Shown in pieces: positions 1,043 to 45,376 of a DNA stretch of 64,000 bases (position 1 is its first letter; each line of letters opens with the position of its first letter). The notes under the pieces were generated by a model that had not been told where the DNA came from, made no database searches, and worked only from the letters and a program-made list of their open reading frames with translations. Position numbers and translations under genes: made by a program. Source of the DNA: Candidatus Uhrbacteria bacterium (lineage in GTDB: Bacteria > Patescibacteriota > Patescibacteriia > UBA9934); NCBI GenBank assembly GCA_963822405.1, contig CAWGHH010000002.1, positions 23,569 through 87,568 of the forward strand, read 5' to 3'.

Positions 1043-2068
1043 CCTGATAAAATCTGCGATATTTTGGTCGAATCTATTGTCGACGAATATTTGCGTCGAG
1101 ATCCGTTGTCCAGACTCGACATCCAGGCGCTTGGCAGTAATGGCATGGTGATGATGGGCGGAATGGCAGATTCAAAGGCAGATTTTGATGTGGCGGAGGT
1201 TGCCAGAAGAGCCTACGAGGCCATTGGCTACAAAGATAGTTTGGAATTTTTTGTAAACCTGGAGAAGCCGTCGGTGAACGGCCCCGCCCCGTCAACGTAC
1301 GGACTTGGCGACGCCAAGTCCCTACAACGGGGCGGGGGAGCTCAGGGCACGGCTATTATTTACGGCTACGCTACTAAAGAGACGCGCGAACTTCTTCCTC
1401 TTCCGGTGGTTCTCGTCCATGCGCTGGCTCGACGGATCGACGATTTGCGACAAGGCGAACCGCGGTTTGCTTGGTTGAAGCCTGACGGAAAAATTCAGTT
1501 AGTCATGGACGGAAAAAATATTGAACACGTAACCGTTATTGCCGAGCATGACGTGAACATGGACGTGTCACAGGTACAGGCGTTGTTGCTTGAGCACGCA
1601 GTTGCGCCGGTTCTTGGAAATGTTGACGGTGTAAAATTATTTATCAATCCAAGTGGTCCGTTTACAAATGGTGGTTTCACTTTGAACGCCGGTGTTTCCG
1701 GTCGAAAAGCCTTAGCCGATTCTTACGGCGGACTCCTCCCACACGGTGGTGTTGCGCTTGCCGGTAAGGATCCGCTGAAGCCCGCCCGCGCCGGTACATA
1801 CATGTCGCGTTATGCTGCGCGCGAGTTAGTGAAAGAAGGTTTGGCGAGCAACGTCCTTGTTCATGCAGTTTACGCTGTTGGTCTCGCTGATCCCGTTTTA
1901 CTTTCTGCTCGCGCTGGTGACGGAACCGATTTATCGAGCATCGTCAAAGAGCGTTTCGACTTCCGCCCCGAAGCAATCGTTGAGCGTTTTAATCTGCGCC
2001 GACCTTTTTACGCATCGTGCGCCACGTACGGAATGTTCGGCCGCGATGGAGTGCCGTGGGAGGAGTAA
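1007..2068 (+). CDS. metK: S-adenosylmethionine synthetase
   Basis: N-terminal GHPDKICD motif and C-terminal ATYGMFGR; 353 aa, typical MetK length and architecture. Confidence 0.92.
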   Translation: MFKAVEAPLSGHPDKICDILVESIVDEYLRRDPLSRLDIQALGSNGMVMMGGMADSKADFDVAEVARRAYEAIGYKDSLEFFVNLEKPSVNGPAPSTYGLGDAKSLQRGGGAQGTAIIYGYATKETRELLPLPVVLVHALARRIDDLRQGEPRFAWLKPDGKIQLVMDGKNIEHVTVIAEHDVNMDVSQVQALLLEHAVAPVLGNVDGVKLFINPSGPFTNGGFTLNAGVSGRKALADSYGGLLPHGGVALAGKDPLKPARAGTYMSRYAARELVKEGLASNVLVHAVYAVGLADPVLLSARAGDGTDLSSIVKERFDFRPEAIVERFNLRRPFYASCATYGMFGRDGVPWEE

Positions 2069-2134
2069 TGCATTGGTCCCCGAGCGTAGGCGAGGGGTCT
2101 AGAGATAAGGTATTTGGTGGAGTAAGATTGTGAT

Positions 2135-2875
2135 ATGGAAAAACTATTTATTAAAAACCGAAAAGGACAGAAGATCAGTGTTATCGTCGAACAACCCGAG
2201 AATCCTGTTGGACTAGCTTTTGTAATGCACGGTCTTGGAGGATTTAAAGAGCAGCTACACATTGAAGTGATGGCCAAATCATTTGTTGATGCCGGATACA
2301 CAACGGTACGTTTCGACGCAACGAACGCGTTTGGGGAGAGCGATGGTGATTATGCCGACGCAACGGTGACAAATTATTTTGCGGATCTTGAAGATGCGAT
2401 CTCGTGGGCGAAGAATCAGAAATGGTATCGGGAACCATTTGTTTTAGCTGGGCATAGTCTTGGTGGTCTCTGCACAATGTTATTCACTGAACAACATCCA
2501 GAACTCGTAAAGGCACTTGCGCCTATTGCGACCGTTCTTTCTGGCGAGATGCACGCGAATACTTCGCAGTCGCTTGAACGAATGCCGGAATGGAAGCGTA
2601 CCGGCTGGTTGATAACAGAAAGTCATTCAAAGCCAGGAATAATGAAGAAATTAAAGTATGGTTTTATCAAAGATATTTTGCGGTTCGACGCGATGAAGGA
2701 TTTGCGGGAAGTGACCGTTCCTGTTTTGATTATTGCGGGTGAAAACGATGAATCGACCCCACTCGATCAACAGAAATTTCTATTTGACCAGCTAGTTGGA
2801 TCAAAAGAATTCCATGTTATTAAGAAGGCACCGCACACTATCCGTGATAGCGAGCAGTTGAAAGAACTAGGTTGA
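2135..2875 (+). CDS. alpha/beta-hydrolase fold serine hydrolase
   Basis: GHSLGG nucleophile-elbow motif; HG oxyanion region (FVMHGLGG); 246 aa. Confidence 0.8.
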   Translation: MEKLFIKNRKGQKISVIVEQPENPVGLAFVMHGLGGFKEQLHIEVMAKSFVDAGYTTVRFDATNAFGESDGDYADATVTNYFADLEDAISWAKNQKWYREPFVLAGHSLGGLCTMLFTEQHPELVKALAPIATVLSGEMHANTSQSLERMPEWKRTGWLITESHSKPGIMKKLKYGFIKDILRFDAMKDLREVTVPVLIIAGENDESTPLDQQKFLFDQLVGSKEFHVIKKAPHTIRDSEQLKELG

Positions 2876-2948: not shown

Positions 2949-3776
2949 ATGACGAACAATCACATTGCATTGTTTAAGGGCAAACAGATTCGAAAAATAG
3001 AACTCAACGGTGAGTGGTGGTTTTCGGTGGTGGATGTAATCGAGGCGCTCACTGATAGCGCTCAGCCGAGTGTTTATTGGAGCGTCATGAAGTCTCGCAT
3101 GAATAGTGAAGACGGAATTCAACTCTTTACAATTTGTAAACAGTTGAAATTGGAGGCCCCGGACGGGAAGATGCGCGAAACAGATTGTGCTGACACGGAA
3201 GGAATGTTTCGTATCATTCAATCGGTTCCATCCCCCAAGGCTGAGCCATTTAAGCGCTGGCTTGCAAAAGTTGGTTTCGAGCGCGTGCAGGAAATCGAGA
3301 ATCCCGAACTCGCTTCGAAACGAACTCGAATGCTTTACAAACTAAAGGGCTATCCAGATTCCTGGATTGAAAAGCGCATGCGGGGAATTGTTATTCGCGA
3401 GGAACTGACTGACGAATGGCAGAAACGAGGCGCAGAAGAAGGTGGGGATTACGAAATCCTAACAGCTGAAATTTCAAAGGCTACTTTTGGAGTGACGCCG
3501 ACTGAGTACAAGAAACTCAAAGGCTTGAAGCGTGAGAATTTGCGCGACCACATGGACGACTTTGAGCTGATTTTTAATATGCTTGGCGAGCGGTCTACAA
3601 CAGAAATCCATCGCAATGAAAATTCGAAAGGCGTAAAGAAATTAAAGGCTGACGCAAAAGCCGGTGGCGCTATTGCCGGGGGAGCGAGGAAACAACTCGA
3701 GAAGAAACTCGGAAGATCAATCGTGACGAAGAAAAACTTTTTGAAACCAGGGAAGAAAAAGAAATTGATCAAATAG
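2949..3776 (+). CDS. DNA-damage-inducible protein D-like (Bro-N domain) with Lys-rich C-terminal tail
   Basis: N-terminus (IALFKGKQIRKIE..WWFSVVDVIEAL) and the central region align by eye with recalled E. coli DinD. The ATG at 2949 is chosen over the upstream ORF start at 2883 because it matches the DinD N-terminus. Confidence 0.65.
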   Translation: MTNNHIALFKGKQIRKIELNGEWWFSVVDVIEALTDSAQPSVYWSVMKSRMNSEDGIQLFTICKQLKLEAPDGKMRETDCADTEGMFRIIQSVPSPKAEPFKRWLAKVGFERVQEIENPELASKRTRMLYKLKGYPDSWIEKRMRGIVIREELTDEWQKRGAEEGGDYEILTAEISKATFGVTPTEYKKLKGLKRENLRDHMDDFELIFNMLGERSTTEIHRNENSKGVKKLKADAKAGGAIAGGARKQLEKKLGRSIVTKKNFLKPGKKKKLIK

Positions 3777-3784
3777 CACCACCT

Positions 3785-4213
3785 CTAGATCCCTCCTGAC
3801 GTCGGGATCGAATGCATGCCGAGGATCCCGTCAATAAGAGTTGAATTGTATTTCAGATAAAGGAAAATGAGCGCGATCTGCAGAAGAACGAGTAGTGCAA
3901 AGACGAACTGAAAACTCGTCTTTTTTGTTTTGTGCCTAAATAGTTGCATGCCGGCTATGGCGCCAATGGAGCCGCCGAGAAATGCGGAGAGCCAGAGAAT
4001 GCGTTCGGGGATGCGTTGGCTGTTTGAACCGGCTAATAATTTGTCGAGTCCGTACAAAAGAAATGCACCAACGTTGAGGCCGATGAAAAGTGAGAGTAGC
4101 CACGGCAGATGAAAAAATGAACCGATCAGAACACTCGACGCGAAGACAAAAAATCCCCAGGGGATAAGTGCGCGAGAATACGGTGATTTAAATCTCAAAT
4201 TGCGTGGACGCAT
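3785..4213 (-). CDS. DUF1294-family small membrane protein
   Basis: Four hydrophobic segments; RIPERILWLSAFLGGSIGAIAGMQLFRHKTKK matches the recalled DUF1294 signature. Confidence 0.65.
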   Translation of the reverse strand: MRPRNLRFKSPYSRALIPWGFFVFASSVLIGSFFHLPWLLSLFIGLNVGAFLLYGLDKLLAGSNSQRIPERILWLSAFLGGSIGAIAGMQLFRHKTKKTSFQFVFALLVLLQIALIFLYLKYNSTLIDGILGMHSIPTSGGI

Positions 4214-11100: not shown

Positions 11101-13059
11101 ATGCAACATGTTCTAGAAACTGGAAAGCGCGCAATCTCCGCAGCAGTAGCTGCCGCGACGATCGCTTTCTCAATCGGTGCTGGTGTTCTAATGACCCCAA
11201 GCACTTCTCACGCTGCAGCTGCCGGTGACCGCTTCCGAAGCGTTTCACTTTCTACTGTCTATTACTACGGTTACGACGGCATGCGTTACACGTACCCAAA
11301 CCTAAGCACTTATAAGAGCTGGCACATGACAGCTTCTGGCGCAGCTGATTTCAGCGGCGTTAGCACAGTTTCAGATAGCACGATCTCGGATATCACCTTG
11401 GGTGGTAACGTCGTCATGCGTGGCGGTTCCTACTGGATCAAGGTCACTTCTGACCCTAAGGTCTACGCGGTCGCCCGCAACGGTAACATTCACTGGATTG
11501 AATCAGAAGCTGTCGCCACCTCATTCGCTGGCTCCGACTGGAACCAGAGAATCGTTGACGTAGCCGATGTTTTCTTCACAGATTACACGGTTGGCTCCTC
11601 ACTCATGAGTGCCACTGCGTATGACGGTGTGATGTTCTCAGACGCTGGTAGCACATACCTCGCATGGGGTGGTGCAAAGCGTTTGGTATCCGCTGCAGGT
11701 ATGTCTGCTAACGGTCTCCAGTCCATGTTCGTCATGGATGGATCCGGTGTTGTAAGCAGCGCATTGTCTGCTGGTTCTGATTTGACTGTTAAGGACAGCG
11801 AAGTCTCTGACGACGCTCAGACTGTAGTTGGTTCATCGGTAGTTACTGGCGCCCTCACGGTGTCCGCAGCTTCCTCTATGCCAGCTGGTGCCTCCCTTCC
11901 AGGTGGCGCTAACTCAGTCCAGGTCTACTCCTTCAACGTGAAGGCAGGTAGCGAAGCTGCTACGTTCAGTGGTGTAACTCTCTCCATGATTGGAGCTGGT
12001 TCCACTAACAACATCAGCAACGCCTACTTGTACGAAGGTGCCACACGTTTGACGGAATCACGCACTGTGAACTCCTCAACACGTCAGGTTTCCTTCAACA
12101 ACTTGAACCGCGCTATTGCTGCAAACGCAATGCACACCTACACGGTGCGCGTAACCGTTTCTACGTCCCAGACGGCAGCTGATACGTTTGGCTTCAAGAT
12201 CGGAGCTTCTGCTGACGTAGTGTCCGCAGGATCCGTAGGCGGTTCCTTCCCAATCTCGGGAAACATCTTTACCCTCACCGGTACTGATGCTGGAACTCTC
12301 TTGATCACAAAGACCGGAACAATCGCTGACCCAACGGTTGGCGCACAGGACGCAGAAATTGGTCAGTTCAAGGCAGCCGCAAACGGCTCCGAGGCTGCAG
12401 ACATTTCCGCAATCACTCTTAAGATTGACAATGCTTCAGACCACGCAGACTTCCGTCTCTGGGATGGCAACGTTGAACTTTCTAAGGGTGTTAACTCCTC
12501 CGGTGACTGGGTAGTCTTTGATCTTTCCGCACATCCTTTCCACATCAACGAAGGTGGTAATAACATCTTCTCAGTGACTGCGGATATTGGCGGACAGTCA
12601 CTTGACACAGTTAAGGTTTACGTTGACAACGCAGTTGACGTTGTCGCTATCGGTGGTGACTACGGATTTGGCCTGACAATTGACATCAGCACCGGTTCTA
12701 CCGGTTACGATGGTACTTCTTGTACGGCTTCCACCGGTGAATGTTCCTTCAGCACGGTTAAGGGTGGCAAGCTCACGCTTGTACTCAACGGCCCAGCTGC
12801 TGGCGACATCCAGGTAGATTCTCAGGATCAGACTCTCTTGAAGTTCGCTGTGACCGCTACTCAGTACGTCAACATCAAGGACCTTGATATCAACGTCTAC
12901 GGTGATGACGACGCAGATGCAGACGCATTTGACGGAACTGAAGCTGACACAGATGTAAGCACGGACGGTTTGATCGGTGCTACTTCCGCTAACATCACGG
13001 ACATCAAGATCATTAACGCTGACACTGGCGCTGTGATCATGGGTCCTGATGGAGCTTGA
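11101..13059 (+). CDS. large secreted Ser/Thr/Gly/Ala-rich surface (S-layer/adhesin-like) protein, N-terminal part
   Basis: Signal peptide (AISAAVAAATIAFSIGAGVLMTPSTSHAAAAG); 652 aa of low-complexity beta-rich sequence. Ends at a TGA that overlaps the next ORF by 11 nt in the +1 frame. Confidence 0.6.
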   Translation: MQHVLETGKRAISAAVAAATIAFSIGAGVLMTPSTSHAAAAGDRFRSVSLSTVYYYGYDGMRYTYPNLSTYKSWHMTASGAADFSGVSTVSDSTISDITLGGNVVMRGGSYWIKVTSDPKVYAVARNGNIHWIESEAVATSFAGSDWNQRIVDVADVFFTDYTVGSSLMSATAYDGVMFSDAGSTYLAWGGAKRLVSAAGMSANGLQSMFVMDGSGVVSSALSAGSDLTVKDSEVSDDAQTVVGSSVVTGALTVSAASSMPAGASLPGGANSVQVYSFNVKAGSEAATFSGVTLSMIGAGSTNNISNAYLYEGATRLTESRTVNSSTRQVSFNNLNRAIAANAMHTYTVRVTVSTSQTAADTFGFKIGASADVVSAGSVGGSFPISGNIFTLTGTDAGTLLITKTGTIADPTVGAQDAEIGQFKAAANGSEAADISAITLKIDNASDHADFRLWDGNVELSKGVNSSGDWVVFDLSAHPFHINEGGNNIFSVTADIGGQSLDTVKVYVDNAVDVVAIGGDYGFGLTIDISTGSTGYDGTSCTASTGECSFSTVKGGKLTLVLNGPAAGDIQVDSQDQTLLKFAVTATQYVNIKDLDINVYGDDDADADAFDGTEADTDVSTDGLIGATSANITDIKIINADTGAVIMGPDGA

Positions 13060-15214
13060 CTCTGCAGTAGACGGTGGAAATGACGCCGTGCAGACCATTG
13101 ACTTCACTGATGACTTCTCCATGAACGCAGGTGAAACTTTGAACCTTGCGGTTACGGCAGACATTGCTAGCGGTGCAGCCTCTGGCACAGCCTTTGGTGC
13201 AAAGTTCGTTCGCTCAGGTCTAGTAACAGAAGATGGCAACGGTGATGCACTCGCAACATCTGACATCATCCCTGGTACTGACATCACTGGTTACAACCAG
13301 GTTGCTCGTGCTGCTTCCTTGGCCTTTGCCTTGGCTAGCACACCTTCTAGCACTACTACTGTTGACGGTACACAGAACGTTTCTGTGGTCGGCTTCACAG
13401 TAACTGCTGGCTTGGCTTCTCCAGTTACTGTTACTGATTTGACTCTCTCTGCATACGGTGAAGACACAGCAGTGGGCGGTACTTACACCATTGGTGGTGG
13501 AGCTCCGGACACCAACGCAGACGTTAACGATTACGTTGACTCCTGCTCACTCTATGACGGTGCTACACGCGTAGCTGGTCCAGAGGCTCCAGCAACTAAC
13601 GGTCAGACGATCCGCTTCAACTCTATGAGCTGGACGATTGCTGCCGGTGGTGTAAAGAACCTCACAGTACAATGTAACTTTGCCAACACTTCTACGGCTG
13701 GCAATGCTTACTTCTCCTTTGACATCGCAACCGTACTTACGGACGTTGTTGCAGAAGATTCTTCTAGCAACGCGATTGACGTAACGGGTGACGCAGCTAA
13801 CGGTGGTGTGACTCCTACTCGCACTGTAACGTTGGCCGACTCCGGCACACTTGCAGTAACGGTAGCTTCTGGTACTCCTAGCGCTGACTTTATCCTCACG
13901 GGTACAAACAACGCAGAGGTAGCAGAATATCGTTTCACAGCTACTAACGAATCCTTCAACGTCACCACGCTCGAATTCAAGGAATTTGCAGCTCAGAATG
14001 ACGGAATTGGTGCTGATTCTTCCGCATACGCTAACAACATCTCTCTCGTGACCCTCTCTTACCCTAAGGCCGACGGCACAATGGGTACGGCTACTGCGTC
14101 TATGTCAGCAAACGCTGCAACGTTTACTGGTCTAACCATGTACGTACCGGTAGGAACTCCGAAGGATGTAAAGGTATACGTGAACACCCCAGCTTCTGAT
14201 CGTAACTCTGGTGGCTCCGCTACCAGCAACGAGAAGATTCGCATGACGTTCTCTAACGGTGACGGATCTGGCACTGAATCATTCAAGGCGACTGGAGCAG
14301 GCTCCGGTTACACACTTGATGAATCAACCAAGTCTGATATCACTACTGGTGTACCGGCTTTCGTAGTCCGCGAAACCAAGCCAGTGATCACTCTCAGCGC
14401 TTCCTCACCTTCCGGTAGTGTCGTCGCTGGTCGCATCGAAGCTCTCCGCTTTAACGTAGCGGCTTCTGCTAACCAGGATGTAGTATTGAACACACTTACG
14501 TTCAAGATGACATCAACAGACAACGCAGGCACTCCAACTCTCTGGAACGGTTGTGACACTAACGGTGTATCTCAGACACTTACGTCAGACTTCGATTTCT
14601 ACGATCTGAAGGACGCAAGTACGACTCTTGATACAGCAGATACCGATTGGACCTTCTTGAAGGCCACCGGTGCAGTTTGCGACACAGCAGCTGCTTCACT
14701 CGGTTTCGTAAAGATCACTCTTCCAGTCGCCTCGATTGTTACTAAGGGTACGAGCCACTCGTATGCCTTGTACTTCGATGCAACCGGTGCAAGCTCAAGC
14801 AGCGATGATTCGCTTCGCTTCGACCTTCCTACGGATCCGATCGCGAATACGTATTTGGTTGATCAGGCATATGTTGTTGCTGTCACTGCAGTCAACACTG
14901 ATTTCACGGCTGCAGCCGCAGGAGGATATACGCTTGGTGACGTTATTTGTGTGGACGCAGACGCTAGTGGCGTTTGTGACGCAGCGGAAGAAAAGGTATT
15001 GGTCGTGGTAGACGGTGGAACTGCTCTTACAGTAGTTCGCGGGTACCTCGGATCTACACCAGCAGCTGATGCGGCTGGAAACTTCCTACGTATGCCAGGT
15101 TCTCTTCTATGGCAGGATGACGGTTCTTCAACCGTTGCCCTTCCTTTGCAGGAATACTGGAGCTCGTCACTTGTTGACAACCTACCGGTCACCGGCGGAA
15201 CATTGGTCTTCTAA
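13049..15214 (+). CDS. large Ser/Thr/Gly/Ala-rich surface protein, C-terminal part (probably continuous with 11101..13059 across a frameshift)
   Basis: Same composition and repeat style as the upstream ORF; no signal peptide of its own; the frame switches at 13049-13059. Confidence 0.6.
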   Translation: MELDSAVDGGNDAVQTIDFTDDFSMNAGETLNLAVTADIASGAASGTAFGAKFVRSGLVTEDGNGDALATSDIIPGTDITGYNQVARAASLAFALASTPSSTTTVDGTQNVSVVGFTVTAGLASPVTVTDLTLSAYGEDTAVGGTYTIGGGAPDTNADVNDYVDSCSLYDGATRVAGPEAPATNGQTIRFNSMSWTIAAGGVKNLTVQCNFANTSTAGNAYFSFDIATVLTDVVAEDSSSNAIDVTGDAANGGVTPTRTVTLADSGTLAVTVASGTPSADFILTGTNNAEVAEYRFTATNESFNVTTLEFKEFAAQNDGIGADSSAYANNISLVTLSYPKADGTMGTATASMSANAATFTGLTMYVPVGTPKDVKVYVNTPASDRNSGGSATSNEKIRMTFSNGDGSGTESFKATGAGSGYTLDESTKSDITTGVPAFVVRETKPVITLSASSPSGSVVAGRIEALRFNVAASANQDVVLNTLTFKMTSTDNAGTPTLWNGCDTNGVSQTLTSDFDFYDLKDASTTLDTADTDWTFLKATGAVCDTAAASLGFVKITLPVASIVTKGTSHSYALYFDATGASSSSDDSLRFDLPTDPIANTYLVDQAYVVAVTAVNTDFTAAAAGGYTLGDVICVDADASGVCDAAEEKVLVVVDGGTALTVVRGYLGSTPAADAAGNFLRMPGSLLWQDDGSSTVALPLQEYWSSSLVDNLPVTGGTLVF

Positions 15215-15256
15215 GACTAGTGTGACGTCCTAAGCCAAAGGGTTTAAGACAATCAA

Positions 15257-15296
15257 AATCCCCCAAGGCCGAAAGGCTGAGGGGGATTTTGGTTTG
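15257..15296 (+). terminator. rho-independent terminator
   Basis: ATCCCCC...GGGGGAT stem followed by TTTTGGTTT. Confidence 0.6.
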
Positions 15297-15310
15297 GGTG
15301 ATAAATATGC

Positions 15311-15355
15311 TATAATCAACAATATGCGATGGAAGTAAGAGTTTTCCATACTTCC
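15311..15355 (+). promoter_or_regulatory. TATAAT -10 box plus inverted repeat GGAAGTA-N11-TACTTCC upstream of abiEi
   Basis: Perfect TATAAT at 15311-15316. The 7-bp inverted repeat at 15331-15355 lies between the -10 box and the AbiEi start, as expected for an autoregulatory operator. Confidence 0.35.
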
Positions 15356-15371
15356 GTCCACTATTATTGAT

Positions 15372-15944
15372 ATGGACAGCCTTTTGAGCAAAATCTATCA
15401 GTCACAAAAAACGATCCTTACTAGTAAGGATTTGGCTTTGATTTGGCGAGAAACTGATCAAAATAATTTAAAAACGAAAATTTCATACTACGTAAAGCAA
15501 GGGTCGTTACTCCGTTTATCTAGGGGAATTTTCGCGAAAGATAGTAACTATTCTCCCAGGGAGCTGGCCACGAGTGTATATACTCCGTCGTACATAAGTT
15601 TTGAAACAGCGCTTCGTGACGCTGGCATGATTTTTCAACATCACGATACTATTTTTGTGGCTGGGCCATGGTCTAAGACGGTGCGCATTGACAAGACGTC
15701 TATTGTATTTCGGAAACTTAAAGAGAGCGTATTGTATAACCAGGAAGGGATAGAAAGAAACGAAACATATAGTATTGCTTCACCAGAGCGTGCATTTTTA
15801 GATATGATTTATCTTTTTCCAGAATATCACTTTGATAATCTTCGAGTATTAAATTGGGAGAAGTGCTTCGAATTAGTAAGAATATACAGCAATGCACAGC
15901 TGGAGAAGCGGTTAAGAAAGTATCAAAACATTTATGCTAAATAG
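15372..15944 (+). CDS. AbiEi-like antitoxin/transcriptional regulator (type IV TA)
   Basis: 190 aa; overlaps the following AbiEii-like gene by 11 nt. N-terminal wHTH-like region plus a C-terminal domain of AbiEi size. The assignment rests mainly on synteny. Confidence 0.55.
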   Translation: MDSLLSKIYQSQKTILTSKDLALIWRETDQNNLKTKISYYVKQGSLLRLSRGIFAKDSNYSPRELATSVYTPSYISFETALRDAGMIFQHHDTIFVAGPWSKTVRIDKTSIVFRKLKESVLYNQEGIERNETYSIASPERAFLDMIYLFPEYHFDNLRVLNWEKCFELVRIYSNAQLEKRLRKYQNIYAK

Positions 15945-16644
15945 AGAAAAGCACCAACTGATCATGGGGCGTATTTTGCGTGATATTTACGCTGACGCTT
16001 CGATTGCTTCATTGTTGGGTTTCAAGGGAGGCACCTGCGCGTATTTTTTTTATGACCTTCCAAGGTTTTCGGTAGATTTGGACTTTGATTATTTAGGAGG
16101 GGATGACACGGATAAGCAGTTAGTATTTGAGAAGTTGGGTAAGATCCTGGAGCAATACGGTCAGCTTAAGGATAGTTGTATCAAACTTAAAACAATATTC
16201 TTCCTTCTGTCTTATGGTGACAGTGATCACAATGTAAAAATTGAAGTAAGTACAAGGATGAACATTCCTAATTTTGGTGATCATTTTGAACTGAAAGAAT
16301 ATCTTGGTATTTCTATGCTAGTTAGTAAGCAACCATATCTTTTTGCGAGTAAGCTTGCGGCACTTACAACGCGAAGTGAGATGGCCACACGTGATATTTT
16401 TGATATCTGGTACTTTGCGAAGAGTAACTGGGATATTGATAGCGAGGTGCTCATTTTGAGGGTCGGAAAGAGTGTGAAAGACCATCTATTGGCATGCATT
16501 ACTGTTATCGAAGGAGTTAAGGACAATCAAATCCTCTATGGGTTAGGGGAGCTTGTCGACGAAAAAGGGAAGACATGGATCAAGAATCATTTACGAGATG
16601 AGGCAGTTTTTATGCTGAAAAATTATTCTTCTGTGTTGAGATGA
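15934..16644 (+). CDS. AbiEii/AbiGii-family nucleotidyltransferase toxin (DUF1814)
   Basis: LGFKGGTCAYFFYDLPRFSVDLDFD nucleotidyltransferase motif (GG..., D.D); 236 aa. Confidence 0.78.
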   Translation: MLNREKHQLIMGRILRDIYADASIASLLGFKGGTCAYFFYDLPRFSVDLDFDYLGGDDTDKQLVFEKLGKILEQYGQLKDSCIKLKTIFFLLSYGDSDHNVKIEVSTRMNIPNFGDHFELKEYLGISMLVSKQPYLFASKLAALTTRSEMATRDIFDIWYFAKSNWDIDSEVLILRVGKSVKDHLLACITVIEGVKDNQILYGLGELVDEKGKTWIKNHLRDEAVFMLKNYSSVLR

Positions 16645-16648
16645 GCAT

Positions 16649-16840
16649 ATGCAACAAGAGCAAGAGAGTAGTGATGCGAAGAAGATATATATTAGATGCA
16701 CTCATTGCGGAGATGAAATATTTTGGAATACTCACAAAAGCCTGACGTACTGTCAGTGCGAGCAAATTTCTGTTGATGGTTGTGAATACTACGTACGAAT
16801 CAACGGTAACAAGGGTGATTATGAGCATGTACAGCGTTGA
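16649..16840 (+). CDS. small zinc-ribbon protein (63 aa; CxxC...CxC...C)
   Basis: CTHCGDE and CQCEQISVDGC cysteine pairs. Starts 4 nt after the abiEii stop, so it is probably co-transcribed. Confidence 0.45.
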   Translation: MQQEQESSDAKKIYIRCTHCGDEIFWNTHKSLTYCQCEQISVDGCEYYVRINGNKGDYEHVQR

Positions 16841-16857
16841 CAATCAACGATAAATTA

Positions 16858-16903
16858 TTGACATTTCTGCATATTTCAGCTATTTTAGTGAAGTTAACTT
16901 CAC
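16858..16903 (+). promoter_or_regulatory. promoter TTGACA-N17-TATTTT followed by palindrome GTGAAGTTAACTTCAC
   Basis: -35 at 16858-16863 and -10 at 16881-16886; a 16-bp perfect palindrome at 16888-16903 lies just upstream of the GTG start of the MopE-like gene. Confidence 0.35.
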
Positions 16904-16916
16904 TCTGGGAGATACC

Positions 16917-19397
16917 GTGAAAAACAGCATTCTATTGTTCGTGTTCCTGACCGCGTGCATTTTCCCCCATGAACCATTGGTGGATGCGGATGGGGACGGT
17001 TATTGGGATTTTGAGGACTGTAATGACTCGGATGCGTCGATTAACCCCGGCGCGGAAGACATTATGTGCGAGGAGGTTGATCGCAACTGTGACGAGAACG
17101 TGGCGTACCCGCGCAATAGCACGTTCACGGACGCTGATGGTGATGGATTCGGTGACCCCGAAGCCTACATCGATCCATGTGCTGCCGTTCAGGGGGTCGA
17201 CAACCGCGACGATTGCAACGACGCGGATCCGGAGATTCATCCCGAACTTGAAGATCCGGCCGACGGAGTCGACAACGACTGCGACGGTGAGGTTGACGAG
17301 GACGCAGTGGTCGACGAAGACCTGGACGACGACGGTTACGGTGTGGACGACTGTGACGACACGAACGCGGGCATCAATCCCGATGCGGAGGAAATCTGCG
17401 ACGGGGTCGACAACGACTGTAACGGTTTGGTTGACGATGACGATACCGGTGTGGCCAGTCAGGCCACTTGGTACGTTGACGTTGACCATGACGGTTACGG
17501 GACGAGCGTGTCAGTCCTGGCTTGTGAAGAGCTGTCTGGCTACTCGGCCGACAACGGGGATTGCAATGACGAGAATTCGGACATTCACCCCGGGGCTGAT
17601 GAGTGGGACTGCTTGGATGTCACGGACTACAACTGTGACGGTCAAACGGGTTACACCGACGCTGACCTGGACTGCAGTCCTGCCTGTGAGGACTGTAACG
17701 ACCAGGACAAGAATTCCTATCCCGGCGCGTCAGAGGTTTGTGATAACGCCGACAACGATTGCAACAACATCGTGGACGATCCTGGCACGGTCACTGGCCA
17801 GAGTCCGTTCTACGCAGACCTTGATCATGACAGCTACGGAGACTTGAACTCTTTTGTGCTGGCTTGTTCTGTGCCAAACGGGTACACGGGCGACTCGACC
17901 GACTGCGATGACGGGAAAACACTCGTGCATCCAGGCGGCGTAGAGGTGTGTGACTCGAACAGCGTAGACGAAGACTGTGACGGAACAGCGAACGACGCTG
18001 ATAGTTCCGTGACCGGTAAATCTACGTTCAATAAAGATGTGGACGGTGATGGGTACGGCGGAGTGCTGACCATCGCCGCGTGCGTTGCGCCTCCGGGTTA
18101 TGTTGCCTTGATTGGCGACTGTGATGACTCGAGCGTTGCGTATCACCCGGGTGCACCCGAAGCTAGTTGTACAGATTCGCATGATTACAACTGTGACGGC
18201 GTAACTGGATATGTTGATCAAGACGGAGACGGCTCTCCGGCTTGCGAAGACTGCAACGACAACAACCCCAGCATTCATACCGGCGCCACAGAATTGTGCA
18301 ACGGTGTGGATGATAACTGTAACGGAACCGTAGACGGTTCAACTGAGGCCACGAATACAAATACTTACTACTTGGACGCAGATGGTGACACGTTCGGGAA
18401 ACTGAGTGCGACCACTAAGGCTTGTTCGTTACCGTCTGGCTACTCGTCGAATTCAACGGACTGTGATGACTCGAAAGTTGGGGTTAATCCCTCAGCGGTC
18501 GAAGTCTGCAACAGTATCGACGACAACTGTAACGGCCTGGCGGACGACGCCGACCCTGGCGTAACTGGTCGCGCTACGTACTATCGTGATGCGGACGGGG
18601 ACACTTTCGGGAGTTCGTCGACTACCAAGCTTGGTTGCGTTCAGCCTCCCGGTTACGTAGTCAGTTCGACTGACTGCAACGACGTCGTCAGCGCAATCAA
18701 TCCGAGCGCAGTTGAAATCTGCGACGTGAAAGACAACGACTGCGACGGCTTCGTTGATGACCAAGACCCGTCCATCACCGGCCAGACCAAGTGGTACGTG
18801 GATACGGATGGTGACGGTTACGGGAATCCGAACTCGTCGAAGCTCGTCTGTTCGCAACCGGCTAACTACGTCGTCAGCTCGACGGACTGCGATGACGCAA
18901 AGTCGGCCGTCAATCCGAGCGCGGTTGAGATCTGCGACGGGATAGACAACAACTGCGTTGGCGGCATTGACGACGGTCTAGCTACCAGTATTTGGTACGC
19001 CGACGTAGATGGTGACGGTTATCGGAATGTGAGTTCGTCGGTCACGGCGTGCGCTCGGCCTGCGGGCTATGTAGCGTCAACCGCCGGAGCGGATTGCGAT
19101 GACACAAACTCGCACGCTCAGACTACGGTTGGACCGGAGGTTTGCGACGGCTTCGACAATAACTGCGATGGTAATATCGACGAAACGTTCGGGACGCAGC
19201 CTTGGTACCCGGATACGGACGGCGATATGTACGGCCTGTTGTCGGGCATGGTTCGTAGCTGTTACCAGCTGCCTGGCTACGTTGACAACAAGTACGACTG
19301 CGACGACACGCGCAGTTATGTCCATCCGTCAGCGCAGGAGCTGTGCAACGGGATTGATGACAACTGCAACGTAACCGTTGACGAGAACTGCATTTGA
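16917..19397 (+). CDS. lipoprotein with about 17 tandem MopE-like Cys/Asp-rich putative metal-binding repeats
   Basis: GTG start; lipobox LTAC. The unit ...DCDDxxxxxxPGAxExCDGxDNDCDGxxDD and WYxDxDGDGYG recurs about every 70 aa. About 12% Asp and 8% Cys. Confidence 0.7.
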   Translation: MKNSILLFVFLTACIFPHEPLVDADGDGYWDFEDCNDSDASINPGAEDIMCEEVDRNCDENVAYPRNSTFTDADGDGFGDPEAYIDPCAAVQGVDNRDDCNDADPEIHPELEDPADGVDNDCDGEVDEDAVVDEDLDDDGYGVDDCDDTNAGINPDAEEICDGVDNDCNGLVDDDDTGVASQATWYVDVDHDGYGTSVSVLACEELSGYSADNGDCNDENSDIHPGADEWDCLDVTDYNCDGQTGYTDADLDCSPACEDCNDQDKNSYPGASEVCDNADNDCNNIVDDPGTVTGQSPFYADLDHDSYGDLNSFVLACSVPNGYTGDSTDCDDGKTLVHPGGVEVCDSNSVDEDCDGTANDADSSVTGKSTFNKDVDGDGYGGVLTIAACVAPPGYVALIGDCDDSSVAYHPGAPEASCTDSHDYNCDGVTGYVDQDGDGSPACEDCNDNNPSIHTGATELCNGVDDNCNGTVDGSTEATNTNTYYLDADGDTFGKLSATTKACSLPSGYSSNSTDCDDSKVGVNPSAVEVCNSIDDNCNGLADDADPGVTGRATYYRDADGDTFGSSSTTKLGCVQPPGYVVSSTDCNDVVSAINPSAVEICDVKDNDCDGFVDDQDPSITGQTKWYVDTDGDGYGNPNSSKLVCSQPANYVVSSTDCDDAKSAVNPSAVEICDGIDNNCVGGIDDGLATSIWYADVDGDGYRNVSSSVTACARPAGYVASTAGADCDDTNSHAQTTVGPEVCDGFDNNCDGNIDETFGTQPWYPDTDGDMYGLLSGMVRSCYQLPGYVDNKYDCDDTRSYVHPSAQELCNGIDDNCNVTVDENCI

Positions 19398-43756: not shown

Positions 43757-45376
43757 ATGCAACATTCTTATCTGTTTATCGTTGGTGGCGTCATGAGTGG
43801 CGTTGGTAAGGGGACATCGAGCGCGGCATTGGCGCTCACGCTCAAGGCAAAAGGCTACAAAGCGACCATGATGAAGATTGATCCGTACGTGAACGTTGAC
43901 GCTGGCACAATGAACCCGCTTGAACACGGTGAAGTGTTCGTGACTACGGATGGCGATGAGACTGACCAGGATATTGGAACCTATGAACGCTTTTTGAACG
44001 AGGATATTACTCGACTAAATTACATGACGACTGGGCGCGTTTATCAGACGGTCATTGCTCGCGAGCGAAATCTTGAGTACGGGGGAAAATGCGTAGAAGT
44101 CGTCCCGCACGTACCGGAAGAAATCATTCGTCGAATCAAGACTGCCGCCGAGCACGCCGAAGCTGACATTACGATTATTGAAGTTGGCGGAACAGTGGGG
44201 GAGTACCAGAACATTTTGTTCTTGGAAGCCGCTCGCATGTTGCAGGGGGAGCTTGGTCGAGACCGAGTTCAGTTTGTGCTTGTTAGTTATTTGCCGGTGC
44301 CGAAGTCTATTGGCGAGATGAAAACTAAGCCGACGCAATACGCGGTGCGTGAGCTAAATGGTGTAGGCATTTTGCCGAATTACATCGTCGGTCGTTCTGA
44401 GTATCCGATCGATAAGCCACGAAAAGAAAAGATTGCTATGTTCTGCGCGGTTTCGGCAGAGAACATTATTTCGGCCCCAGATGTTTCGAGTATCTACGAC
44501 ATTCCAGATATGTTCGAGGGTCAGGAATTTGCCAGCAAAGTGCTAAAGGGTTTTGGCCTTGTTCAAAAGCAAAACGACCTTGAAGCTTGGAATGATTTTA
44601 CGGCCAAGATTCGTTCGGCGCAGAAGGAGGTCCGAGTCGGAGTGGTCGGCAAATACTTTTCAACGGGAGATTTTGTGCTATCCGACGTGTATCTTTCGGT
44701 GCTTGAATCGATTAAGCACGCTGGCGCTGCACTTGGGGTGAAGCCGGTTATTGAGTGGTTGAATGCCGAGTTATATGAAACTAATCCTGAGAAGCTAGTT
44801 GATCTTAAAGACTTGCATGCAATTGTTATTCCCGGCGGGTTTGGTTCGCGTGGTATCGAGGGAAAAATTAAGGTTATCGAGTACGTCCGCGTGAATAACA
44901 TTCCGTACCTCGGTTTGTGTTACGGTATGCAATTGGCGGTTGTCGAGTATGCCAGAAACGTCCTTGGCTGGACTGACGCGAATACTACGGAGATCGATAA
45001 ACTGACGGCTCATCCAGTGATTGATTTCATGGCGGGACAGAATGAAAACGTCGAGAAGGGTAATTACGGTGGTACGCTCCGTCTTGGTTCGTACGATTGC
45101 GTTCTCGCGCCGGGTACGAAGTCTGCGGTAGCGTACGGGCGTCCAACAATTTCAGAACGTCACCGTCATCGCTATGAGTTCAACAATACCTTTCGCGCCG
45201 AACTTGAGGCGGCTGGCTTAATCATTGCCGGTACTTCGCCCGACGGATCACTTGTAGAAATGATCGAGCACAAGAATCACCCTTTCTTTGTTGGCGTGCA
45301 GTTCCATCCTGAATTCCAAAGTCGGCCATTAGCCCCACATCCGCTCTTCGTTGCGCTCCTGAGCGGGCGGGAATAA
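43757..45376 (+). CDS. pyrG: CTP synthase
   Basis: N-terminal GGVMSGVGKGTSSAAL P-loop region and C-terminal glutamine amidotransferase (GLCYGMQLAVVE, HPEF); 539 aa. Confidence 0.95.
   Translation: MQHSYLFIVGGVMSGVGKGTSSAALALTLKAKGYKATMMKIDPYVNVDAGTMNPLEHGEVFVTTDGDETDQDIGTYERFLNEDITRLNYMTTGRVYQTVIARERNLEYGGKCVEVVPHVPEEIIRRIKTAAEHAEADITIIEVGGTVGEYQNILFLEAARMLQGELGRDRVQFVLVSYLPVPKSIGEMKTKPTQYAVRELNGVGILPNYIVGRSEYPIDKPRKEKIAMFCAVSAENIISAPDVSSIYDIPDMFEGQEFASKVLKGFGLVQKQNDLEAWNDFTAKIRSAQKEVRVGVVGKYFSTGDFVLSDVYLSVLESIKHAGAALGVKPVIEWLNAELYETNPEKLVDLKDLHAIVIPGGFGSRGIEGKIKVIEYVRVNNIPYLGLCYGMQLAVVEYARNVLGWTDANTTEIDKLTAHPVIDFMAGQNENVEKGNYGGTLRLGSYDCVLAPGTKSAVAYGRPTISERHRHRYEFNNTFRAELEAAGLIIAGTSPDGSLVEMIEHKNHPFFVGVQFHPEFQSRPLAPHPLFVALLSGRE

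Follow-up and report, generated by a model that had tools for sequence, protein, structure and literature searches.

The AbiE systems of Streptococcus agalactiae and Lactococcus lactis are overlapping bicistrons, in which the gene of a regulator, AbiEi, is followed by that of a DUF1814 nucleotidyltransferase, the toxin AbiEii, and a COG5340-type antitoxin is likewise paired with a DUF1814 toxin in MenAT3 and MenAT4 of Mycobacterium tuberculosis (Rv1044-Rv1045 and Rv2827c-Rv2826c). The four AbiEii motifs, defined as I (hG[GS]), II (DxD with an upstream Arg), III (KLxAaxxR) and IV (+DxxD), are required for toxicity and for guanosine triphosphate binding (Dy et al., PMC3985639), and the phospho-acceptor is T65 in S. 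agalactiae AbiEii and S78 in MenT3 (bioRxiv 10.64898/2026.01.19.700257). AbiEi proteins are described as binding inverted repeats in their promoters in studies on S. agalactiae (PMC3985639) and M. tuberculosis (PMC7319586), and the mechanism of MenAT is given, in PMC7319586 and in a 2026 preprint, as nucleotidylation of tRNA 3' ends, neutralised by antitoxin-induced auto-phosphorylation. Described here is a related locus in the window, meaning the whole stretch of 64,000 nt of Candidatus Uhrbacteria contig CAWGHH010000002.1 that was analysed. It has the same overlapping bicistron of abiEi (ORF1) and abiEii (ORF2), and differs from the S. agalactiae and L. lactis systems in having a third, coupled gene downstream (open reading frame 3, ORF3; family DUF7695), in its host, a member of the candidate phyla radiation (CPR), and in being known from its genes alone (Table 1).

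The reading favoured here, with a probability of roughly 0.7, is that of an acquired islet in which a standard AbiE pair with its operator is accompanied by a DUF7695 rider that is independent of its partner. ORF1 and ORF2 are a genuine AbiEi/AbiEii pair forming an ordinary AbiE module of toxin-antitoxin and abortive-infection type, as had been proposed in an earlier note made from the letters and their translations; the TATAAT box, inverted repeat, three reading frames, 11-nt overlap, 4-nt gap and GG...DxD motif listed there were all recovered at the same positions. ORF2 scores well above the cut-off of Pfam AbiEii (PF08843; 2.3e-17, 64.2 bits against 22.5) and matches the PADLOC AbiEii model PDLC02324 end to end (4.5e-67). 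It shares motifs I to IV with the S. agalactiae and L. lactis systems, namely G32-G33 (I), R44-x-S46-x-D48-x-D50 (II), K140-L-A-A-L-T-T-R147 with Leu at the 'aromatic' position (III) and R153-D154-I-F-D157 (IV), and all of the motif residues, together with S46, were found to be invariant in 20 relatives (alignments A2 and A4). S46 lies two residues ahead of the first catalytic Asp (R44-F-S46-V-D48), as does the known phospho-acceptor, its equivalence to T65 being judged by the spacing R63-x-T65-x-D67-x-D69. By analogy with the AbiEii and MenT toxins, AbiEii would halt translation through the addition of nucleotides to the 3' ends of tRNA; AbiEi, if it acts like S. agalactiae AbiEi and MenA3, would neutralise it through induced auto-phosphorylation of Ser46. 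A profile of ORF2 relatives matched the DUF1814 structures 4O8S/4OK0 at 2e-9, and searches of the PDB with the ORF2 sequence and profile returned only JHP933-type DUF1814 structures and no MenT, which at the level of sequence sets the locus apart from MenAT.

ORF1 matches the PADLOC AbiEi model PDLC02255 over its full length (4e-56). An AlphaFold (AF2) model, built from an alignment of database homologues (predicted local distance difference test score, pLDDT, 78.7), had as its best PDB match by Foldseek chain A of 6Y8Q, the S. agalactiae AbiEi (E 9.6e-5, probability 1.0), in a full-length structural alignment of 202 columns at 14% identity, which points to the same two-domain fold; Rv2827c of M. 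tuberculosis (1ZEL) was the third match (E 3.9e-3). PDB sequence searches with ORF1 alone and with the profile A3 of its relatives gave nothing useful. The window proteins are shorter than those of the S. agalactiae and L. lactis systems and very divergent from them, and Rv2827c is far longer, at 293 amino acids (aa). ORF1 has at least 1000 homologues, a very large family in CPR metagenomes, and the Joint Genome Institute lists some of them as 'predicted transcriptional regulator of viral defense system'. An abiEi orthologue was present upstream in 68 of 68 close AbiEii loci having enough upstream sequence. In the window abiEi lies upstream of abiEii and overlaps it by 11 nt. The type IV label given to the module is contested, as AbiE is reclassified as type VII in the 2026 preprint. 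The AbiE pair itself is routine, and what it adds is a compact and very abundant CPR clade with a clean single-palindrome operator.

It should also be noted that a long form of AbiEii, of 421-430 aa, in which the C terminus is extended by some 200 aa without a Pfam model, occurs at other loci (L004:1262-2527, L043:2699-3982, L075, L079 and L220:823-2109). It has an AbiEi of its own, of about 206-212 aa, and is likewise then followed by DUF7695.

The inverted repeat ahead of abiEi, which had been called operator-like, was found to be the core of a longer palindrome that is conserved with compensatory changes. For this comparison, the 80 closest AbiEii loci (50-74% identity) were obtained from a metagenome contig scan and 61 distinct upstream regions from them were aligned. 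The family palindrome is gap-free at 29 bp, with the form ATGGAAnnnnnn-5-nnnnnnTTCCAT, and the family promoter is TTGACn-17-TA(C/T)AAT, of which the final two −10 bases are the first two of the palindrome. On the plus strand, 83.6% of cells over 12 pair positions were paired, against 34-47% in slid-arm controls, changes had occurred on both sides in 10 of the 12 pairs, and the observed values were reached by none of 500 shuffles. In the window the core consists of GGAAGTA (15331-15337), 11 nt and TACTTCC (15349-15355). This 7-bp repeat alone is marginally unusual, a perfect repeat of at least 7 bp being found in 4.5% of shuffled 55-nt leaders, whereas the comparison with relatives makes it highly non-random. 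The window has no second copy of the 29-bp palindrome, for which 0 chance matches are expected. The layout recurs in a distant AbiE clade with arms of its own, e.g. ACTGGAA-N17-TTCCAGT and ATTTGTACTGGA-N19-TCCAGTACAAAT, and the outer half-sites TGGAA/TTCCA are kept in sequence in this clade also.

The operator was also found to vary together with the regulator. Operator positions 7-9 were best predicted by AbiEi residues 34, 31, 38, 41, 28, 32 and 30, which sit in or just ahead of the predicted recognition helix (residues 30-42), and the mean adjusted mutual information was 0.257 for this helix and 0.05-0.10 for the rest of AbiEi (0.40 against 0.13 among variable columns). Three operator classes were drawn from the upstream regions of loci L133-L212: K34 with GTA/TAC, which is the combination present in the window, T/L34 plus K38 with AGG/CCT, and Y/H34 with CT[GA]/[CT]AG. 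On the strength of its conservation and of this co-variation, the palindrome is regarded as most likely being the AbiEi operator, in agreement with the autoregulation established for AbiEi of S. agalactiae and M. tuberculosis; by the same comparative support, a winged-helix dimer of AbiEi would bind it and repress the operon. The classes also suggest that AbiE systems resident together in CPR communities may be insulated from one another, and their tracking of residues 34/38 amounts to an experiment set up by nature, in which the specificity of repressors for operators, and cross-talk among such AbiE systems, could be studied. Promoter inverted repeats are common to this locus and S. agalactiae; the S. 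agalactiae and L. lactis systems, however, have two 23-bp repeats across the promoter, and the mycobacterial layout (PMC7319586) is one of multiple repeats. With its three classes, the single compact palindrome over the −10 region and start site is a neat variation on the autoregulation known for AbiEi.

The promoter of the window differs from that of the family. The TATAAT box to which the earlier note had drawn attention is present, but it is not the family promoter, the relatives having no box there and using the element that abuts the palindrome. It is specific to this lineage because, in the window, the family promoter has decayed: the homologue of the family −10, 9 nt downstream of the box, reads TGCGAT, and the family −35 of TTGAC has been lost too (GATAAA). 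The extended box is presumed to be the present promoter of the operon, and was not called in a −35/−10 scan of the window because its −35 is poor. If this TATAAT is active, the operator would lie at about +6 to +35 and be wholly transcribed.

ORF3 starts 4 nt beyond the abiEii stop (TGAgcatATG), with no promoter or terminator between the two, and would be translationally coupled to abiEii through this gap. Its product matches Pfam DUF7695 (PF24749) at 1.3e-9 and 38.1 bits (cut-off 25) and has the cysteines C17, C20, C35 and C37 plus C45. Fourteen residues are invariant among 33 close homologues (C17, C20, E23, I24, W26, N27, T28, K30, C35, D43, G44, C45, R50 and G53), with C37 and H29 conserved in at least 90%, and the retention of all 14 in ORF3 indicates that it is still under selection. 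The AF2 model is confident (pLDDT 81.5), all-beta with five strands, and matches phage 'DUF7695 domain-containing proteins' in BFVD, among them those of Klebsiella phage Sugarland and of Proteus phage PM135. Against the PDB, the best Foldseek matches of the model were eS27 and the MCM zinc ribbon at E ~0.6, which were not used as evidence, and a profile search of PDB sequences gave zinc-ribbon matches only, none of them significant. PHROGs returned only weak matches of unknown function, PADLOC has no model for ORF3, and no paper on DUF7695, or on AbiEii together with a zinc ribbon, was found in the searchable literature. The small four-Cys gene of the earlier note is, on these comparisons, a real and conserved Cys-rich zinc-ribbon gene, and its position predicts co-transcription with abiE.

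An exhaustive profile search returned 566 DUF7695 clusters, mostly stand-alone proteins of 50-100 aa, and a few fusions to a HicB-like antitoxin, NADAR or RNase T were seen among the best 150 of the 566. The phage proteins share the fold and the CxxC...CxC...DG...R signature of ORF3, reading CxxCxD..S..RHDF..CKCG..VDGG..Y.RR without the fifth Cys. Their genes lie within arrays of small ORFs of early type, have no constant neighbour and are annotated as hypothetical only, in contrast to the DUF7695 genes of CPR, which stand directly behind defence effectors.

A census of the context of DUF7695 was made in 64 species-level genome loci, almost all of CPR, with the upstream gene scored in 61. In 48 of the 61 a same-strand gene was located no more than 30 nt upstream, these tight partners including PDC-S01 (15 loci; domains AAA_14+DUF4143), SoFic (12), AbiEii (11) and an exonuclease-like effector (4), and RhuM was also found as an upstream neighbour. 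RadC, HsdM/S, HsdR, N6/N4 methylase and PLD-SNF2 helicase were among the genes downstream, where tight coupling was less constant (29/58). DUF7695 proteins did not cluster by partner: identity was 0.669 among those sharing a partner type and 0.673 among those with different types (permutation p = 0.64), and the nearest DUF7695 neighbour shared the partner type in 11 of 34 cases. Of the closest AbiEii loci, 66 had 200 nt or more of downstream sequence, and DUF7695 was absent from all of these, as judged by tblastn and a motif scan, and also from loci L213-L215. The window AbiEii is nested 12 nodes inside a DUF7695-free clade in a neighbour-joining tree. From this nested position, a recent gain of ORF3 by the window lineage would be the parsimonious reading.

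Judged by these gene contexts, ORF3 is an uncharacterised, promiscuous rider of defence islands and not a component of AbiE. The idea that it could be a new AbiE accessory was not borne out: the family is already in Pfam, none of the 66 closest loci carries it, unrelated effectors precede it as often as AbiEii does, and clustering by partner is lacking. Conservation downstream of abiEii, which the earlier note had proposed checking, holds for trios in at least three AbiEii clades and fails in the closest AbiE loci. ORF3 is under purifying selection, placed for co-translation with toxic effectors and interchangeable among effectors, and its coupling to abiEii is a new locus architecture without being a new AbiE component. 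DUF7695, a mainly phage-borne family, stands in CPR genomes directly behind diverse defence genes of the single-effector kind, and RadC or restriction-modification (R-M) genes frequently come after it. Such CPR islands run from effector and DUF7695 through RadC to a type I R-M system, methylase or PLD-SNF2 helicase, and of these the window holds the abiE-DUF7695 part only, without R-M or RadC. No small zinc-ribbon 'hinge' gene in defence islands of this kind was found in the searchable literature, and the DUF7695 hinge behind diverse effectors appears to be undescribed there.

The function of ORF3 can be addressed only tentatively. HicB neutralises toxins and NADAR reverses toxin damage to DNA. 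The fusion partners of DUF7695 (HicB, NADAR, RNase T) suggest a setting of toxin-antitoxin systems or nucleic acids, and the fusions with antitoxins hint at an accessory that is possibly nucleic-acid-directed. ORF3 has the same domain as the HicB-like and phage NADAR fusions, but it is stand-alone and acidic, and the fusions are rare among the best 150 of the 566 clusters. From the generic role indicated by its contexts, together with these fusions, it may be guessed, at less than even odds, that ORF3 is a partner-independent nucleic-acid-binding or regulatory module, useful beside any toxic effector, with AbiEii-specific contacts being unlikely. A more speculative and rather doubtful extension is that DUF7695 is a phage-derived general accessory of Patescibacteria single-effector anti-phage systems, often as the hinge to RadC or R-M genes. 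It might then couple to AbiEii, SoFic, PDC-S01, the exonuclease-like effector and RhuM without effector-specific contacts, serving all of them as regulator, safety catch or sensor of infection, and the window would hold a minimal, self-contained abiEi-abiEii-DUF7695 example. A mostly viral zinc ribbon a few nt behind four or five unrelated CPR effectors is in any case the more interesting lead of this locus. If it proved to be a regulator or sensor common to them, it would add a new kind of interchangeable part to the defence islands of a poorly studied phylum, and as merely a recombination linker or passenger it would be an ordinary finding.

The three genes make up an islet of 1.6 kb with a guanine-cytosine (GC) content of about 37-42%, against 50-60% in the flanks. 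The host is a member of the Patescibacteria (CPR), judged by the CTP synthase PyrG (43757-45373), whose identity is 88% to a homologue in a 'Patescibacteria group bacterium' and 68% to one in Candidatus Uhrbacteria. The islet as a whole has probably been gained horizontally by this chromosome.

Several observations weigh against the favoured reading. ORF1 scored under three curated cut-offs: it reached 16.3 bits with Pfam AbiEi_4, for which 25 are required, 15.2 with AbiEi_3 of Pfam (cut-off 26) and 39 with NCBIfam TAA_AbiEi (cut-off 150). Shared ancestry confounds the co-variation scores, and the sole control is the enrichment of the helix over the remaining protein, which stands out in that ancestry should inflate scores protein-wide. 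With the family promoter decayed, transcription from TGnTATAAT is assumed, and would carry the whole palindrome into the transcript; the 56 G:T against 26 A:C mismatches on the plus strand are a weak hint of RNA pairing. As to ORF3, AbiEi-AbiEii-DUF7695 trios occur in at least three AbiEii clades, and some end with DUF7695 beside housekeeping genes like the window (L041, L044, L056 and L220). Its closest relative (69%) likewise stands behind an AbiEii, and at L216, which has the closest AbiEi relative (74%), a divergent DUF7695 gene (1986-2180, minus strand) lies 108 nt upstream of abiEi. Taken together, these contexts lend some probability to a functional tie with AbiE. Among 53 DUF7695 proteins of CPR, ORF3 is also the most acidic, at a net charge of −3 and an isoelectric point of 5.45 (family median 8.3), with an N-terminal tail of MQQEQESSDAKK in place of the usual Lys-rich tail of its relatives, a poor fit to nucleic-acid binding.

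Some of these points would be accounted for if the palindrome were mainly an RNA 5' stem-loop, concerned with mRNA stability or translational control, and no AbiEi operator. This is considered very improbable. Pairing is slightly greater on the plus strand, but the opposite strand is nearly the same (80.2%), as is expected of DNA rather than RNA, and the asymmetry in G:U against A:C is too weak and too confounded by relatedness to separate the two. The −10 of the 60 relatives shares its last two bases with the start of the palindrome, so that a start about 7 nt downstream is expected inside the left arm and would remove most of it from the transcript, which counts against a stem-loop; from the box of the window, the palindrome would be wholly transcribed. 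The half-sites TGGAA/TTCCA are furthermore conserved as sequence, beyond pairing alone, the variable positions co-vary with the recognition helix, a scan in and around the leader matched no Rfam family, and AbiEi proteins bind promoter repeats in the studies cited above.

The remaining alternatives concern ORF3. Its role as a dedicated third part of AbiE, for example a second antitoxin, sensor or specificity factor contacting AbiEii or AbiEi, would agree with the 4-nt gap and the low GC shared with abiE, with the trios (L009, L023, L029, L041, L044, L056, L061 and L217), including those with the long AbiEii (L004, L075, L079 and L220), and with the DUF7695 gene that adjoins abiE in another orientation at L216. 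It is nevertheless judged improbable, as 0/66 closest AbiE loci carry DUF7695, AbiEii is the upstream gene in just 11-12 of 61 species loci, near-identical DUF7695 proteins stand behind different effectors, and characterised AbiE systems function with two genes according to PMC3985639 and the 2026 preprint. ORF3 could instead be the leftover of a larger abiE-DUF7695-RadC/R-M island, with the unit being DUF7695 plus its downstream genes and with no role here; RadC or R-M genes follow tightly in many loci, the islet stops directly past ORF3, and no other CPR member is as divergent or as acidic as ORF3, whose Lys-rich tail is lost. This too is unlikely, in that coupling is far more constant upstream than downstream, operons ending in DUF7695 beside housekeeping genes are found elsewhere (L018, L022, L041, L044 and L220), and ORF3 retains every invariant residue. 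DUF7695 could also be a linker or mobile mini-cassette, with the junction TAAATTTATG and conserved gene ends driving the shuffling of defence genes by recombination. Many loci have this junction of 10 nt (stop, ATTT, start) at either end of their DUF7695 gene; it was counted 34 times in 413 kb, where about 6 in all were expected by estimate, and 19 of the 34 lie at DUF7695 borders. The linker would also explain the lack of clustering by partner and the same DUF7695 protein behind different AbiEii types. It is hard to credit, however, as the protein is strongly conserved (4-5 Cys, H29, D43, G44 and R50), also in phages without the junction, 4-nt gaps are common in these operons, and TAAATTTATG occurs at other gene borders and not in the window.

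Table 1. Features of the abiE-DUF7695 islet and its borders (positions in the window).
Feature	Position	Strand	Basis
GC-rich hairpin + T-rich run	15251..15294	+	Inverted repeat I1, 14-nt arms, 93% complementary
TGcTATAAT, extended −10-like box	15308..15316	+	Sequence; TG 15308-15309, TATAAT 15311-15316
TGCGAT, decayed homologue of family −10 TA(C/T)AAT	15325..15330	+	Alignment of 61 abiEi upstream regions
29-bp palindrome ATGGAAGTA-N11-TACTTCCGT	15329..15357	.	Gap-free in 61 loci; predicted AbiEi site
abiEi (ORF1), 190-aa predicted antitoxin/autorepressor	15372..15944	+	PADLOC and structural match
abiEii (ORF2), 236-aa DUF1814 nucleotidyltransferase, predicted toxin	15934..16644	+	Pfam, PADLOC, motifs
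DUF7695 gene (ORF3), 63 aa, predicted zinc ribbon	16649..16840	+	Pfam PF24749, conservation, AF2 model
TTGACA-17-TATTTT promoter-like site	16858..16886	+	Promoter scan, 10/12 matches

A number of further observations were made on the neighbours of DUF7695. The exonuclease-like effector is a family of 152 aa with no Pfam match, identified by PADLOC as 'Effector / Exonuclease' (7.5e-21), and was seen upstream of DUF7695 at L031:3537-3992, L042, L049 and L077. Examples of the fusions are L123:3488-4195, P0146 and P0051, with the NADAR+DUF7695 protein lying on a phage contig. At L216, RadC (3567-4064) follows 5 nt beyond abiEii, which represents the same parts in another order. The junction TAAATTTATG was located at L004:2524-2534 and 2720-2730 and in many of L016-L079, whatever the neighbours; it was also considered as the target-site duplication of a mobile DUF7695 cassette, and this was rejected on the grounds of its presence at other gene borders and its absence from the window.

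The borders of the islet follow the GC profile of the window, which falls past ~15230 and climbs to 56-60% from ~16950. On the left, the hairpin with its T-rich run is likely the terminator of the upstream gene for a 721-aa surface protein and marks the edge, although a simple terminator scan made no call there. The right edge is marked by the promoter-like site beyond ORF3, which belongs to the next, unrelated and high-GC gene, encoding an 826-aa protein with MopE-like repeats (Pfam Cu-binding_MopE). A search for flanking repeats at the borders found nothing beyond an imperfect 13-nt direct repeat, GTTGACAACCTAC at 15173-15185 and GTTGACAATCAAC at 16836-16848, that encloses the low-GC islet; it is probably due to chance and could be the trace of an insertion event. 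The islet sits amid very large, repeat-rich proteins of secreted or surface type (window 11101-15214 and 16917-19397), with ORFs of 652 and 721 aa on its left flank and, on its right, the 826-aa protein of MopE-like Cys/Asp repeats, which has a signal-peptide-like N-terminus.

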